Source: a virus (Duplodnaviria > Heunggongvirae > Uroviricota > Caudoviricetes). From it: 8,918 nucleotides of DNA. This document shows positions 2,247 to 8,918 of the stretch, in pieces; position 1 is the first letter of the stretch, and each line of letters opens with the position of its first letter. A model generated the notes under the pieces. That model was not told the origin of the DNA. It saw only the letters and a list, made by a program, of their open reading frames with translations, and made no database searches. Made by a program: the position numbers and the translations under genes. The DNA is taken from IMG/VR virus record IMGVR_UViG_2740892229_000012; one strand, given 5' to 3'.

Positions 2247-2364
2247 CTACAAAACCCATACCCCGCCGCGTGCGGGTTTTTTATTATCAGGAGGCAGAAT
2301 NNNNNNNNNNCTACAAAACCCATACCCCGCCGCGTGCGGGTTTTTTATTATCAGGAGGCAGAAT
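2247..2364. repeat. Scaffold-overlap duplicate: 2247..2300 and 2311..2364 flank N10 gap 2301..2310
   Basis: The 54 bp 'ctacaaaacccataccccgccgcgtgcgggttttttattatcaggaggcagaat' is repeated identically on both sides of the N run. It contains the hairpin, the RBS and the first two bases of the major tail start codon. Confidence 0.9.
2315..2346 (+). terminator. Intrinsic-terminator-like hairpin plus T6 tract upstream of the major tail gene
   Basis: Stem CCCGC (2326-2330) / GCGGG (2336-2340) with loop CGCGT, followed by TTTTTT 2341-2346 and preceded by AAAA 2315-2318. A duplicate copy lies at 2251..2282 (scaffold artefact). SD AGGAGG at 2353-2358 and ATG 2363 follow. Confidence 0.5.
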
Positions 2365-3079
2365 GTCTGCTTTGTATGAACGCTCACAGCTGACGCAGGT
2401 GATGATTTCATCTGCCCCGGCGACTGCTGAAACTATGGATAAGGCGGAATATCTGCGCCTGGACTGCACCATCAAGGAAGTCCAGTTCACCGCCGGTCAG
2501 AAACAGGATATTGATGTGACCACGCTCTGCTCCACAGAGCAGGAGAACATCAACGGTCTGGGGGCGTCGTCCGAGATTTCCATGTCGGGTAATTTTTATC
2601 TGAATCAGGCCCAGAACGCCCTGCGTGATGCCTATGACAATGACACGGTGTATGCGTTTAAGGTGCAGTTTCCGTCCGGTAAGGGCTTTAAGTTCCTGGC
2701 GGAAGTGCGTCAGCACACCTGGTCATCCGGTACCAACGGCGTGGTGGCTGCAACGTTTTCACTTCGCCTGAAGGGTAAACCGGTGTCCTATGTGGTACCG
2801 CTGGCGTTTGTGAAAAATCTGGAGAAGACACTTACCGTGAATACCGGTGCGCTGCTGACAATGTCAGTCAGTGTCAACGGGGGAACGCCGCCTTATAAAT
2901 ACGCCTGGAAGAAGGATGGTCAGCCGGTCGAGGGACAGACTACTGACACTTTCAGTAAAGCCAATGCGCAGTCAGGTGATAAGGGGGCTTATACCTGCAT
3001 GGTAATGGATTCTGCAGAACAGCCGCAGAGCATTACCTCTGATGCGTGTACGGTAACGGTTAATGGTGCGGGCGGATAA
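2363..3079 (+). CDS. Major tail (tail tube) protein with C-terminal Ig-like domain, 238 aa
   Basis: ATG 2363 with AGGAGG at 2353-2358; the ORF-track 283 aa version is an artefactual N-terminal extension across the N gap. Residues ~152-236 (nt ~2816..3070) carry an Ig-like signature: PPYKYAWKKDGQPVEG...GDKGAYTCMV...TVTV. Position between terminator protein and chaperone genes supports major tail identity. Confidence 0.85.
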   Translation: MSALYERSQLTQVMISSAPATAETMDKAEYLRLDCTIKEVQFTAGQKQDIDVTTLCSTEQENINGLGASSEISMSGNFYLNQAQNALRDAYDNDTVYAFKVQFPSGKGFKFLAEVRQHTWSSGTNGVVAATFSLRLKGKPVSYVVPLAFVKNLEKTLTVNTGALLTMSVSVNGGTPPYKYAWKKDGQPVEGQTTDTFSKANAQSGDKGAYTCMVMDSAEQPQSITSDACTVTVNGAGG

Positions 3080-3335
3080 GGCTTATGGCAAAAGATCTGA
3101 AAACACTGGCGCNNNNNNNNNNCACGCCTGGAAGAAGGATGGTCAGCCGGTAGAGGGACAGACTACTGACACTTTCAGTAAAGCCAATACGCAGTCAGGT
3201 GATAAGGGGGCTTATACCTGCGAGGTAACGGATTCTGCAGAACAGCCGCAGAGCATTACCTCTGATGCGTGTACAGTAACGGTTAATGGTGCGGGCGGAT
3301 AAGGCTTATGGCAAAAGATCTGAAAACACTGGCGC
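2901..3335. repeat. Scaffold-overlap duplicate: 2901..3112 and 3124..3335 flank N10 gap 3113..3122
   Basis: Direct duplicate of 212 bp at offset 223 with 6 nucleotide differences. Covers the 3' end of the major tail gene (Ig-like domain) and the start of the chaperone gene. Confidence 0.85.
3123..3302 (+). CDS. Major tail protein, allele B, 3' fragment (Ig-like domain C-terminus), partial
   Basis: In frame from the first base after the N gap to TAA 3300-3302; translation HAWKKDGQPVEGQTTDTFSKANTQSGDKGAYTCEVTDSAEQPQSITSDACTVTVNGAGG differs from 2363..3079 at A->T, M->E and M->T. Confidence 0.7.
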   Translation, partial: HAWKKDGQPVEGQTTDTFSKANTQSGDKGAYTCEVTDSAEQPQSITSDACTVTVNGAGG

Positions 3336-3682
3336 TGGCCAGACTGTCGGGGTTCCGTCATAAAACGGTGAAGGTGCCGGAATGGAGAAATGTCAGCGTG
3401 GTGCTGCGGGAGCCTTCGGCAGAGGCCTGGTATCTGTGGCAGGAAGTGCTCAATGGTGATGGAGAGGATGACGATACCCTGTCGGTGGTGGCGAAAACCC
3501 GCCGTAACCTGGAAGCGGATGTGACGCTGTTCTGCGATGTCCTGTGTGATACTGACCTGCAACGGGTGTTCACTCCGGACGACCGTGAGCAGGTGCTGGC
3601 CGTCTATGGTCCGGTACATGCCCGGTTGCTGCGTCAGGCACTGGAACTGATCGCTGATGCAGAGTCGGCCAGAAAAAAGTAG
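3308..3682 (+). CDS. Tail assembly chaperone (lambda gpG functional analogue), 124 aa
   Basis: ATG 3308 lies 5 nt after the major tail stop; acidic ~124 aa protein directly upstream of the tape measure gene and ending at the slippery heptamer, the conserved chaperone arrangement. A truncated allele-A start copy lies at 3085..3112. Confidence 0.75.
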   Translation: MAKDLKTLALARLSGFRHKTVKVPEWRNVSVVLREPSAEAWYLWQEVLNGDGEDDDTLSVVAKTRRNLEADVTLFCDVLCDTDLQRVFTPDDREQVLAVYGPVHARLLRQALELIADAESARKK

Positions 3683-3987
3683 CCCGCCCGGAAATTCGCT
3701 TTCTGATGCGACTTGCGCTCCGTCTGGGGCGCACCTTATCCGAACTGCGGCACAGCCTGAGTGCGAGCGAGGCGATGATGTGGATGGAGTTCGACAGGGT
3801 ATCCCCGCTGGGTGATGAGCGCGGGGATATCCGTAATGCACAGATCGTGAAAGCGGTTTTCGGGGCACAGGGGATGAATGTTGCACTGAAGGACGCCATG
3901 CTCTGCTGGGGCGAGGATGAGGATAAGCCGGAGGTGGATCCGTTTGCGGCGCTGGAAGACGCGCTGAGCTTCGCAGCACAGTCATGA
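3308..3987 (+). CDS. Tail assembly chaperone GT-like fusion produced by programmed -1 ribosomal frameshift (predicted)
   Basis: The 0-frame ends ...R K K stop at 3680-3682. The -1 frame opens at 3658 (stop at 3655-3657), just upstream of the slippery site, and runs to TGA 3985-3987. The ORF-track entry 3706..3987 has no convincing SD of its own. Confidence 0.65.
3673..3679 (+). promoter_or_regulatory. -1 frameshift slippery heptamer A_AAA_AAG
   Basis: A AAA AAG is read as codons AAA(3674-3676) AAG(3677-3679) in the chaperone frame, immediately before its TAG stop. This is the same heptamer type as the E. coli dnaX frameshift site. Confidence 0.65.
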
Positions 3988-3995
3988 ATGATGAG

Positions 3996-4016
3996 AACCG
4001 CTGAGGCGGTTTTTTT
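3996..4016 (+). terminator. Hairpin plus T7 tract between the GT chaperone and tape measure genes (putative partial intrinsic terminator)
   Basis: Stem AACCGC (3996-4001) / GCGGTT (4006-4011), tetraloop TGAG, T run 4010-4016. Lies 9 nt after the T-frame stop; the tape measure RBS GGAGAAAGG (4023-4031) and ATG 4035 follow. Confidence 0.4.
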
Positions 4017-4034
4017 ACGCCCGGAGAAAGGTGA

Positions 4035-7000
4035 ATGGCGACGTTACGTGAACTGATTATCAAAATTTCGGCAAATTCGCAGTCATTCCAGTCGGAGATC
4101 CAGCGGGCTTCCCGTATGGGCAGTGAATATTACCGGACCCTGCAGAATGGCGGGCGTCAGGCCGCTGCGGCAGCCCGGGAGCAGCGACGTGCCCTGGCAG
4201 AACTGAACAGCCAGTTGACGGAAATTCGCGGTTCTGCTGTCGGAATGGCTGGCGCATTTGCCGGTGCCTTTGCCACCGGACACCTGATTTCACTGGCGGA
4301 TGAGTGGAGTTCCGTGAATGCCCGTCTGAAACAGGCGTCGCAGTCATCTGATGAATTTTCGTCATCACAGAAAGTGCTGATGGATATCAGCCAGCGGACA
4401 GGCACCGCATTTTCGGATAATGCGGCCCTGTTTGCCCGCTCAGCCGCCTCAATGCGTGAATATGGTTACAGTGCTGATGATGTGCTTAAGGTGACGGAGG
4501 CCATTTCCACAGGGCTGAAAATCTCCGGTGCCAGTACGGCAGAGGCGGGCTCGGTGATCACCCAGTTCNNNNNNNNNNTTCGGCTGCCTCGATGCGTGAA
4601 TATGGTTACAGTGCTGATGATGTGCTGAAGGTGACGGAGGCCATTTCGACAGGGCTGAAAATCTCCGGTGCCAGTACGGCAGAGGCGGGCTCGGTGATCA
4701 CCCAGTTCAGTCAGGCGCTGGCGCAGGGTGTATTGCGTGGTGAGGAGTTTAATTCGGTCAATGAAAGTGGTGACCGGATCGTACGTGCACTGGCTGCGGG
4801 TATGGGCGTGGCCCGTAAAGATCTGAAGGCAATGGCGGATGACGGAAAACTGACAGCGGATAAAGTGGTCCCCGCGTTAATCAGCCAGCTGGGGATATTA
4901 CGTGATGAATATGCGGCCATGCCGGAAACGGTTTCCAGTAGTATCACGAAGGTGGAAAACGCCTTTATGGCCTGGGTGGGCGGTGCGAATGAGGCCAGCG
5001 GGGTGACGAAAACGCTCTCCGGCGTGCTGAACGGTGTTGCCGGACAGATTGATAATGTGGCAACAGCCGTGGGGGCACTGGTTGCCGTCGGGGTTGCCCG
5101 GTACTTTGGCAATATGGCCTCCGGAGCGATGTCTGCCACGGCAGGACTTGTGACTGCTGCACGTAATGAAGTTGCACTGGCGGAAGCACAGTTCAGGGGA
5201 ACGCAGATTGCCACGGCGCGGGCAAGAGCAGCCGTGTACTGTGCTCAGCAGGCCGTGGCGGCAGCCCGCGGGACGGAGATGCAGATTGCAGCAGAGGCCC
5301 GTCTGGCGGCCACACAGGAACGCCTGAACAGAAATATTGCTGCCAGAAGCGCCGCCCAGAATGCGCTGAACAGTACAACGGCGGTGGGCTCACGTCTGAT
5401 GAGCGGTGCGCTGGGGCTGGTTGGTGGCGTACCCGGACTGGTGATGCTGGGGGCTGCAGCATGGTACACGCTGTACCAGAATCAGGAGCAGGCCAGGGAG
5501 TCTGCGCGCCAGTATGCACTGACGATAGATGAAATCGCGCATAACACGCCGTCAATGTCTTTGCCTGAAGCCTCAGATAATGAAGGACGAACACGGGCGG
5601 CGCTGACAGAGCAGAAGCGGCTGATTGATGAGCAGTCCAGTCGGGTGAAATCCCTGCAGGAACAAATCGCCGGGTATCAGTATGTTCTGGCGAACCCTGG
5701 CTGGACGACCGGTGACGGATTCATGATAAACCATCTGACATCGGTGAAGACCGTAACGGAAGGGCTTGCTCAGGCAACAGAGCAGCTTGCCGTTGAGCAG
5801 TCCCGTCTGGCACAGATGCAGGAAAAAGCGCAGTCCATTCAGGATGTGCTTGCCGGGCTGGAAGACCGTCGTGTGGCGTTAATTCGTCAGCAGGCGGCAG
5901 AGCAGAATAAGGTGTACCAGTCCATGCTGGTTATGAACGGTCAGCATACGGAATTCAACCGTCTGCTGGGGCTGGGTAATGAACTGCTTCAGCAGCGGCA
6001 GGGACTGGTGAATGTGCCGTTACGGCTGCCACAGGCCACTCTGGATGATAAACAGCAGAGTGCCCTGACAAAAACAGAGCGTGAGCTGGCCCTGTCCAGA
6101 CTGAAAGGGGAAGAAAAAGAGCGCGTCCGACTGGGGTATGCGGCGGATGACCTCGGTTTTGTGGGTGATCCGTATCAGGAGGCGAGACAACGTTATATCA
6201 GTAATGCCCTGGAAGCCTGGCGCAATAACGAGGCGAATAAACCCAAATCCCGGGGTGGAAAATCAGAGACGGAAAAAGCGGAAGACAGTTTTTCCCGGCT
6301 GCTGAAGCAGCAGAAAGAGCAACTGGCACTGGCCGGTCAGAACACGGAGCTGGCGAAGCTGAAGTACCAGACAGCGCTGGGTGAACTGAAAACCCTGTCG
6401 GAGATACAGAAGCAGGAACTGCTGCGTAACGCGGCCCTGATTGACCAGCAAAAAATCCGGGAACAGTTGCGATCCCGGGAAGAGACCCTGAAGAATGATA
6501 ATGTGGCTGCGCGTGCATCAAATGAAGCCGAACTGCTGGGGTACGGGCAGGGAGAACGAGCCAGGGAACGCATGCGGGAGTTGCAGCAGATCCGCGACAG
6601 CTTCCGCCAGAAGGATGCGGACCTTCAGTCTCAGTATCAGACCGGGGATATCAGTGAGGATTTTTACAGACAGGCTCTGGCGCAGAATGCACAGTATCTG
6701 AGTGAACGTCTGAAAGAGCAGGAAGCCTTTTATGCCGAATCGGATGTGCAGCGTGCGGACTGGCAGAAAGGGCTGCAGGAGGGATTCAGTAACTGGGTGG
6801 ACAATGCATCCGATTACGCCTCTCAGGCAGCACAGCTGGCAACGGAGGGGATTTCAGGACTGGTGAATAACATCACGGAGATGCTGAACGGAAACAAAGT
6901 GGAATGGCGCAACTGGGCCTCATCCGTACTGCAGGAAATATCAAAAGTTCTTATGAATGCGGCCATTGTCAACGGAATTAAGACGGCGGCAAACGGTATG

Positions 7001-7417
7001 TCCGGTGCGGGAGGATTTCTCGGCAGCATTGGTGACTGGCTGGGCGGAGCGGTGGCCAATGCAAAAGGCGGCGTGTATACCTCGGCAAACCTGAGTGCGT
7101 ACAGCAACAGTATTGTGGATACGCCCACGTACTTTGCGTTTGCAAAAGGGGCCGGGCTGATGGGGGAAGCCGGACCTGAAGCCATTATGCCCCTGACCCG
7201 GGCGGCGGATGGCTCGCTGGGCGTACGCGCGGTGGGCAGTATGAACGGCAGTGCTGGTCTGGTGTATTCCCCGGTCTACCACATCGCCATTCAGAATGAC
7301 GGGGCTAACGGACAGATAGGGCCGGAAGCTGCGGGCAGCCTTGTGCAGCTGATTGACCAGCGGGTGCAGGCGGTGATGCTGTCCATGCGACGTGACGGAG
7401 GAATGCTGAGTGGCTGA
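4035..7417 (+). CDS. Tail tape measure protein (about 1080 aa once the duplicated overlap is collapsed)
   Basis: ATG 4035 with RBS GGAGAAAGG. The ORF is split in the track (4035..4628 and 4592..7417) only by the N10 gap and duplicate. Shows long Ala/Gln/Glu/Arg/Leu-rich stretches (likely coiled coil), two hydrophobic Gly/Ala/Val-rich segments (nt ~5054..5161 and ~5375..5476) and a conserved-looking C-terminal region ending ...GEAGPEAIMPLTRAADGSLGVRAVGS... Position between chaperones and M. Confidence 0.85.
4440..4708. repeat. Scaffold-overlap duplicate: 4440..4568 and 4580..4708 flank N10 gap 4569..4578
   Basis: Direct duplicate of 129 bp at offset 140 inside the tape measure gene with 5 nucleotide differences, all synonymous (both copies encode SAASMREYGYSADDVLKVTEAISTGLKISGASTAEAGSVITQF). 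Confidence 0.85.
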
Positions 7418-8374: not shown

Positions 8375-8918
8375 NNNNNNNNNNAATATTCACGAAGAAA
8401 GCCTGAACGAGTCGGTTAAATCAGAGCAGTCACCGCGGGTGGTGCTCTGGGAAATTGACCTGACGGTGCAGGGCGGTGAGCGGTATTTTTTCTGTAATGA
8501 GCTGAATGAAAAAGGGGAGGCGGTCACCTGGCAGGGGCGGCAATATCAGGTATACCCGATTGACGGCAGCGGTTTTGAGATGAACGGGAAGGGCAGCAGT
8601 GCCAGACCGTCGCTGACGGTGTCCAATCTGTTTGGTCTGGTCACCGGGATGGCGGAGGACCTGCAGAGTCTGGTGGGGGCCACGGTGGTCCGCCGCCGGG
8701 TGTATGCCCGTTTTCTGGATGCGGTGAATTTTGTGGCGGGCAATCCGGAAGCGGACCCGGAGCAGGAGCTGAGCGACCGCTGGGTGGTGGAGCAGATGTC
8801 AGAGCTGACGGCCATGACAGCCTCGTTTGTGCTGGCAACACCGACGGAGACGGACGGAGCGCTGTTTCCCGGTCGCATCATGCTGGCGAACACCTGTATG
8901 TGGGATTACCGGGGAGAT
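7757..8918. repeat. Scaffold-overlap duplicate: 7757..8290 and 8385..8918 flank N10 gap 8375..8384
   Basis: 534 bp after the gap replays the L gene from codon 3 onward at offset 628, with roughly 5-7% nucleotide divergence and several amino-acid substitutions. Confidence 0.85.
8385..8918 (+). CDS. L: Minor tail protein L, allele B (divergent second copy), internal fragment truncated at both ends
   Basis: Open in frame from 8385 to the window end (178 codons); translation NIHEESLNESVKSEQSPRVVLWEIDLTVQGGERYFFCNELNEKGEAV... parallels 7751..8290 with substitutions such as R->G, P->A, A->V, E->D, T->S, S->E and WTYRSD->WDYRGD. Confidence 0.8.

Follow-up and report, generated by a model that had tools for sequence, protein, structure and literature searches.

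A probable programmed −1 ribosomal frameshift of the lambda G/GT type in the tail module of an HK97-like Escherichia coli prophage

The DNA analysed here (the window) is a stretch of 8918 bases that belongs to an HK97-like, lambdoid E. coli prophage and carries its late-gene tail module. Two overlapping open reading frames (ORFs), G and T, lie between the major tail and tape measure genes, the canonical setting for a G/GT pair, in an order that matches that of complete relatives. The genes that surround them are as follows.

Connector, + strand, PF05135, first in the gene order
Head completion protein, + strand, PF05521, after the connector
HK97 gp10-like protein, + strand, after the head completion protein
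Tail completion protein, + strand, between the gp10-like and major tail genes
Major tail tube protein with a C-terminal Ig domain, ending at 3302, + strand, just before G
Tape measure protein, from 4035, + strand, PF20155, PF06120 and PF09718, after T
M, + strand, PF05939, after the tape measure gene
L, + strand, PF05100, after M

The window is a scaffold rather than a continuous sequence and contains five 10-N spacers (1034–1043, 2301–2310, 3113–3122, 4569–4578 and 8375–8384). The contig ends that flank these spacers repeat each other over 54–300 nt at 93–100% identity, and the contigs probably derive from several similar prophages that were collapsed in a draft assembly. The overlap between G and T is not an artefact of joining because it lies wholly within one contig (3123–4568). 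The region 3200–4100 is 99–100% identical to Stx1a-, Stx2a- and Stx2c-converting phages, and the stretch 3300–3990 is present in 1,246 of 5,426 complete E. coli genomes. The G/T module also occurs in 92 phage records, many of them from Shiga-toxin converting phages.

Several ORFs in this part of the scaffold were considered and set aside. The ORF at 3063..3302 (79 aa), taken as a candidate second frameshift that would add the Ig domain to the tube protein, is an artefact of a scaffold join, as is the division of the tape measure gene (4035–4628 and 4592–7417), which does not represent two genes. Complete relatives carry a single 717-nt major tail gene and a single 3243-nt tape measure gene. 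In the window, the major tail tube gene extends from about 2353 to 3079 and is partly repeated at 3123–3302, with matches to Ig_2, Ig_3 and I-set at its C-terminus; a RefSeq relative names the tail tube protein 'immunoglobulin domain-containing protein'. Two antisense ORFs, 3212..4063 and 3570..3899, are without a family match and were taken as spurious. The first of these (− strand) would encode 283 aa across G and T with a composition rich in Pro, Ser and Arg, and we regard it as a side effect of the GC richness of the coding strand.

The features of the G/T overlap on which our analysis is based are listed below.

3308–3682, + strand, gene G, tail assembly chaperone of the HK97 gp13 type, 124 aa plus TAG
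3655–3657, + strand, −1 frame stop TGA, the 5′ limit of the interval where a shift gives a long product
3673–3679, + strand, slippery heptamer A_AAA_AAG, in the X_XXY_YYZ phase of G
3680–3682, + strand, 0-frame TAG directly 3′ of the heptamer, the 3′ limit of the shift interval
3679–3987, + strand, predicted −1 extension after the slip, 102 codons (V-A-R-P-E-I-R-F-L-M...) plus TGA
3679–3759, + strand, linker codons of the extension, followed by the T domain (PF06223) at about 3760–3972
3706–3708, + strand, ATG annotated as the start of 'tail assembly protein T', the first ATG/GTG/TTG of the −1 ORF
3714–3733, + strand, GC hairpin of 8 pairs with the loop GTCT, 34 nt past the heptamer

G matches PF06222 (Phage_TAC_1) over its full length (E = 2.3e-61; 205.6 bits, with a cut-off of 25), and no Pfam match other than PF06222 was found for it. 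It is 63% identical to HK97 gp13 and matches PDB entry 2ob9 ('Tail assembly chaperone'), the solved HK97 chaperone, with E = 1.8e-46. The −1 peptide matches PF06223 (Phage_tail_T) at residues 30–100 (E = 6.4e-19; 68.6 bits, with a cut-off of 25.9), a match that marks the −1 ORF, as judged from its sequence, as a real coding region. G also matches PHROG 344 and the −1 peptide PHROG 337; NCBIfam yielded no model for either the G or the T part. A third profile, PHROG 14766, is matched by both proteins, with positions 1–122 covered by G and positions 123–224 by the −1 peptide. When the conceptual 226-aa fusion is compared with PHROG 14766, it aligns in a single stretch, residues 1–225 to positions 1–224 of 224 (E = 4.7e-86). 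The fusion is thus collinear with the profile, and the predicted junction falls where the two halves of the profile meet. The length of PHROG 14766 and its two-part match suggest that it was built from fused proteins that had already been annotated.

G ends in the codons GCC AGA AAA AAG TAG. The −1 frame stays open from 3658 through 3984 and closes with a TGA (3985–3987). A preliminary description of this DNA had placed A AAA AAG in the chaperone frame just before the TAG, and both the sequence and the ORF listing confirm this. It had also placed the opening of the −1 frame 15 nt before the heptamer, after the stop at 3655–3657, which a reading of the sequence bears out. Its −1 run of 103 codons does end at 3987, but contains 104 sense codons when counted from 3673 and 102 when counted after the slip. 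The fusion length of about 225 aa that it gave is slightly off, because 124 and 102 residues add up to 226. AAAAAAG is expected 0.76 times in the whole window (both strands), and a rough estimate of the probability that an in-phase heptamer would arise by chance within the six in-phase positions of the 25-nt overlap is ∼3e-4. The heptamer at 3673–3679 is the sole in-phase A_AAA_AAG among the 1888 codons of the + strand genes of the window; the other AAAAAAG on the + strand (7881) is out of phase.

We compared this arrangement across 133 related loci from genomes and viral contigs, which reduce to 95 non-redundant loci with 47–100% identity in G. The hosts include Escherichia, Enterobacter, Klebsiella, Pectobacterium, Serratia, Proteus, Morganella, Xenorhabdus, Yersinia and Pantoea. 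For some counts a thinned set of 37 loci at <92% DNA identity was used. Of the 95 loci, 92 have T in the −1 frame of G and carry an in-phase A_AAG where the C-terminal Lys of G aligns. T extends for 73–103 codons past the slip in these 92 loci, with the exception of one anomalous locus, L096, where it extends for 319. The heptamer is A_AAA_AAG in 71 loci, G_GAA_AAG (the HK97 form) in 8 and G_GGA_AAG (the lambda form) in 5; the remainder comprise A_GCA_AAG or G_GCA_AAG (7 loci) and A_GAA_AAG (1 locus). The core A_AAG is invariant in all 92. In at least 15 loci, the −1 stop abuts the heptamer on its 5′ side and the 0-frame stop follows directly or a few codons beyond. With stops so close, a shift in these loci is possible only at the heptamer or in its immediate 3′ neighbourhood.

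The three exceptions all carry indels. L022 has an indel inside G, L052 has one extra A in the run, which gives an in-frame fusion in a degenerate symbiont genome, and L046 has one A fewer, which places T in the +1 frame. In the thinned set, the A-site codon is AAG in 37 of 37 loci, whereas 32% of the remaining Lys codons in G genes are AAG; the 37/37 count is partly circular because the site was located via its in-phase A_AAG, although this site coincides with the invariant C-terminal Lys.

The breadth of this conservation bears on whether a fusion is made at all. One could argue that the arrangement is fortuitous or that the module is a decaying prophage remnant in which no fusion is produced, given that the window stems from a fragmented assembly in which the prophages are multi-copy and that some relatives are pseudogenised (L022 and L052). 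However, G and T are intact with full-length family matches, the arrangement is conserved across the Enterobacterales, and near-identical copies are present in inducible Stx phage genomes. We therefore consider the absence of a fusion to be extremely improbable.

A second explanation places the slip in transcription rather than translation, with RNA polymerase adding one A such that G and T would be in frame with each other in some mRNAs. The site is a homopolymer, the run contains 7 or 8 A in 23 of the 37 thinned loci, and its length is changed in rare assemblies (L052, L046 and P0020, a fused protein entry discussed below). Efficient bacterial transcriptional slippage needs runs of about 8–9 A or more. 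The run in the window consists of only 6 A, and 12 of the 37 thinned lineages keep the arrangement with 3–4 A (GCA, GAA or GGA followed by AAG), so that a long conserved homopolymer of ∼8–9 A or more is not what is found in this family. The invariant feature is instead the A_AAG phase, which matters to ribosomes and not to the polymerase. Transcriptional slippage is accordingly a very improbable source of the fusion.

A search of 5.8 billion protein clusters for deposited G-T fusions found only three anomalous ones, from assemblies with indels (P0121, P0122 and P0020). In P0121, V-A-R-P and the stop have been lost through an in-frame deletion, P0122 carries a pair of indels that compensate each other, and in P0020, as in L052, the length of the A-run is changed. 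Together with L052 (∼1854) and L046 (∼1859), these are rare assemblies with a permanent fusion or an altered phase, and they may be either homopolymer sequencing errors or real mutants. Two other atypical sequences were noted. In L096, the 319-codon −1 ORF (from 1866) matches T over its first 32 residues only, and P0123 (390 aa) joins PF06222 to PF09718, the C-terminal domain of the tape measure protein. The two have the appearance of deletions in which chaperone sequence became fused to the tape measure gene.

The most direct alternative to a frameshift is that T is a separate 93-aa protein that starts at ATG 3706 following termination at TAG 3680 and reinitiation, with the heptamer being a by-product of a Lys-rich C-terminus. 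The ATG exists, the inspected records of close relatives annotate it as the start, and at only 23 nt past the G stop it would permit coupling. A Met is also kept at this position in 31 of 34 relatives. Three Xenorhabdus loci (L035, L024 and L029) have CTG at the aligned Met and peptides reading FLL, FLL and FML, respectively; L029 has an ATG one codon before the aligned position. In these three loci the CTG lies ∼30 nt past the heptamer, with the stop of G four codons beyond the heptamer.

The sequence between the slip site and this Met argues against a separate T. According to the ORF listing, the −1 frame has no start codon before 3706. The −1 peptides nevertheless align from the slip site itself as K-K-V-x-x-P-x-x-x-F-L-M-x-L-A-L-R-x-G-R-T, with conserved V, P, F and L upstream of the Met used as the T start. 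Between the slip site and the first start codon, entropy at the three −1 codon positions is 0.88, 0.87 and 1.47 bits, and at the conserved Pro codon of the linker it is 0, 0.19 and 1.97 bits. The conserved residues with a varying third position indicate that the linker is translated, in a frame that lacks an upstream start codon.

Ribosome-binding potential leads to the same view. Across the 37 thinned loci, mean anti-Shine–Dalgarno (anti-SD) pairing upstream of the T Met is −1.5 kcal/mol, the same as the background measured within G (−1.6), whereas the family means are −4.5 kcal/mol for G and −5.8 for the tape measure gene. The corresponding values in the window are −3.5 kcal/mol for the T ATG, −5.8 for G and −6.6 for the tape measure gene. 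The preliminary description had found no convincing ribosome-binding site for T, and pairing at background level across the family agrees with it; we reject an independent ribosome-binding site for T on these pairing energies. Independent initiation would also have no need of the −1 relation and the in-phase A_AAG that 92 of 95 loci keep, and the end-to-end fit of the fusion to PHROG 14766 likewise speaks against a separate T. On these sequence comparisons, independent initiation is unlikely to be the main route to T, and a separate 93-aa product arising by reinitiation is improbable as an account of the locus. ATG 3706 is probably an internal Met codon of the G-T fusion (GT).

Taken together, these results make it highly probable that this pair, a member of the HK97 gp13/gp14 family, undergoes programmed −1 ribosomal frameshifting as lambda G/GT does. 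The G/GT chaperone frameshift put forward in the preliminary description thus holds up, given its conservation in 92 of 95 loci, a linker that is coding, and a fusion that matches PHROG 14766 from end to end. Most ribosomes on G (3308–3682) would terminate at TAG 3680, yielding the 124-aa chaperone, and a minority would slip back by one base on A_AAA_AAG (3673–3679), after which both tRNA-Lys could re-pair with AAA AAA. The next codon would be GTA (3679–3681), and reading would continue in the −1 frame to 3984. The product would be a 226-aa G-T fusion with the predicted junction peptide …ESARKKVARPEIR…. By analogy with lambda, the G part would bind the tape measure protein, whose gene follows closely from 4035 onwards, the T domain would recruit the major tail protein, and the shift would set a fixed, low G:GT ratio.

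The closest described counterpart is HK97 itself. In the HK97 record (GenBank AF069529), gp14 is annotated as a CDS in two pieces that overlies gp13, and its note reads 'translated due to a -1 frameshift'. HK97 gp13/gp14 and the window share PF06222 and PF06223, the location between the major tail and tape measure genes, a shift at the homologous Lys codon, the linker K-V-x-x-P-x-x-x-F-L-M-x-L-A-L-R and the match to PHROG 14766. They differ in that HK97 has an imperfect G_GAA_AAG whereas the window has a perfect A_AAA_AAG, in that five more 0-frame codons precede the HK97 stop whereas the stop in the window directly follows the heptamer, and in that T and the tape measure gene are separated in HK97 by a moron gene (gp15), whereas the window has no moron.

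The lambda G/GT system (Levin, Hendrix and Casjens 1993; Xu, Hendrix and Duda 2004, 2013, 2014), as summarised in PMC5009743, has the same architecture and presumed role, and its T domain belongs to PF06223. Both systems combine a low-level −1 shift, a predicted one in the window, with a heptamer that ends in A_AAG near the end of G and does not require a downstream structure. Lambda gpG, however, belongs to a sequence family other than that of G in the window (PF06222), and the lambda heptamer is G_GGA_AAG rather than A_AAA_AAG, although five loci of the window's own family use G_GGA_AAG. G-T frameshifting is widely conserved (PMC5009743); what Xu et al. (2004) reported is taken here from PMC5009743 and PMC10274946. 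In lambda, gpG and gpGT are both absent from mature virions (PMC5009743), so a search for the fusion by virion mass spectrometry would probably fail.

The heptamer in the window is identical to that of E. coli dnaX and would be read by the same single E. coli tRNA-Lys. In dnaX gamma/tau, an upstream SD-like element and a nearby downstream stem-loop accompany the heptamer, and shifting occurs at about 50%. Neither of these stimulators is detectable in the window, where low efficiency is expected, and the two cases also differ in that the −1 product is the longer one in G/T. Upstream SD-like pairing in the window reaches −3.0 kcal/mol at best, and no dnaX-type SD element was found ∼10 nt upstream of the heptamer. 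The family mean for this pairing, −3.9 kcal/mol as compared with a background of −1.6, is a modest enrichment, but it is confounded by the Asp and Glu codons of the C-terminus and may reflect nothing more than these. Likewise, a dnaX-type stable stem-loop a few nucleotides downstream was not found, the nearest hairpin being 34 nt away. The earlier designation of the signal as dnaX-type therefore applies to the heptamer, but not to the SD and stem-loop stimulators of dnaX.

We examined this nearest hairpin as a possible downstream stimulator. The preliminary description had reported a GC hairpin at 3713–3738, and a hairpin is indeed present, with its actual coordinates being 3714–3733. The fold of 3673–3760 is no better than that of shuffled sequences (z = −1.0), and RNAalifold detected no consensus structure among 34 relatives. 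The helix shows no covariation, with 70% of cells paired as compared with 69% in shuffles; across the relatives there is one double change, and most substitutions break pairs. Its partial conservation can be attributed to its overlap with the conserved LALRxGR codons, and at 34 nt it lies too far away to meet the ribosome while the heptamer is being decoded. On the basis of the fold z-score, the RNAalifold result and the lack of covariation, we reject the GC hairpin as a stimulator. The doubt already raised about its distance was well placed.

We infer that slippage does occur at this site and that the bare heptamer probably shifts with an efficiency of a few percent. Heptamers containing A_AAG are highly shift-prone in E. 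coli (PMC5009743), and low shifting is expected from a bare A_AAA_AAG in this host (PMC5009743, along with the behaviour of dnaX mutants). Because the lambda G:GT ratio is ∼30:1 (PMC5009743), shifting of a few percent would be of the order that lambda needs.

It is possible that the adjacent TAG acts as a 'shifty stop', a pause that would help the shift. In 23 of the 37 thinned loci there is no codon between AAG and the 0-frame stop. These include all five with a non-slippery P-site codon (GCA or A_GAA), which cannot re-pair well. The comparison of the 37 loci suggests that A_AAG is the essential element and that a ribosomal pause at the neighbouring stop may assist it. A stronger form of this idea is that the signal is not the heptamer at all, but a minimal A_AAG with an abutting 0-frame stop, where much of the shifting would come from P-site slippage of tRNA-Lys as the ribosome awaits release factor. 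We regard this stronger form as doubtful. If the 'shifty stop' proved correct, the G:GT ratio would depend on the termination efficiency of the host rather than on RNA structure.

The G/GT frameshift in its HK97 gp13/gp14 form is already known, both as a kind and as a family, and the locus adds no new biology to the G/GT paradigm. A literature search for this frameshift in Shiga-toxin phages returned nothing relevant. The value of the finding lies mainly in annotation. The inspected Stx phage records and PGAP-annotated E. coli genomes present the chaperone and T as two separate CDSs, and the 226-aa GT product is consequently missing from those proteomes. Conversely, the annotated 93-aa 'T' protein is probably not a real product. 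When these prophages are engineered or scored for viability, the heptamer should be treated as essential.

Some minor features of the module were also recorded. The HK97 gp10-like gene contains an in-phase G_GGA_AAA heptamer at 1602–1608. A terminator-like hairpin with a U-run (3993–4016; GAGAACCGC/GCGGUUUUU; z = −2.7) occupies the gap between T and the tape measure gene; it is absent from the output of a simple terminator scanner run on the window. In many relatives the tape measure SD is immediately preceded by a T-run, and the HK97 record annotates a putative terminator at the place analogous to 3993–4016. A second terminator-like hairpin, CCCGC-CGCGT-GCGGG followed by T6, is found at 2262–2276 (repeated at 2326–2340), just upstream of the major tail SD, and matches the putative terminator annotated before HK97 gene 12.
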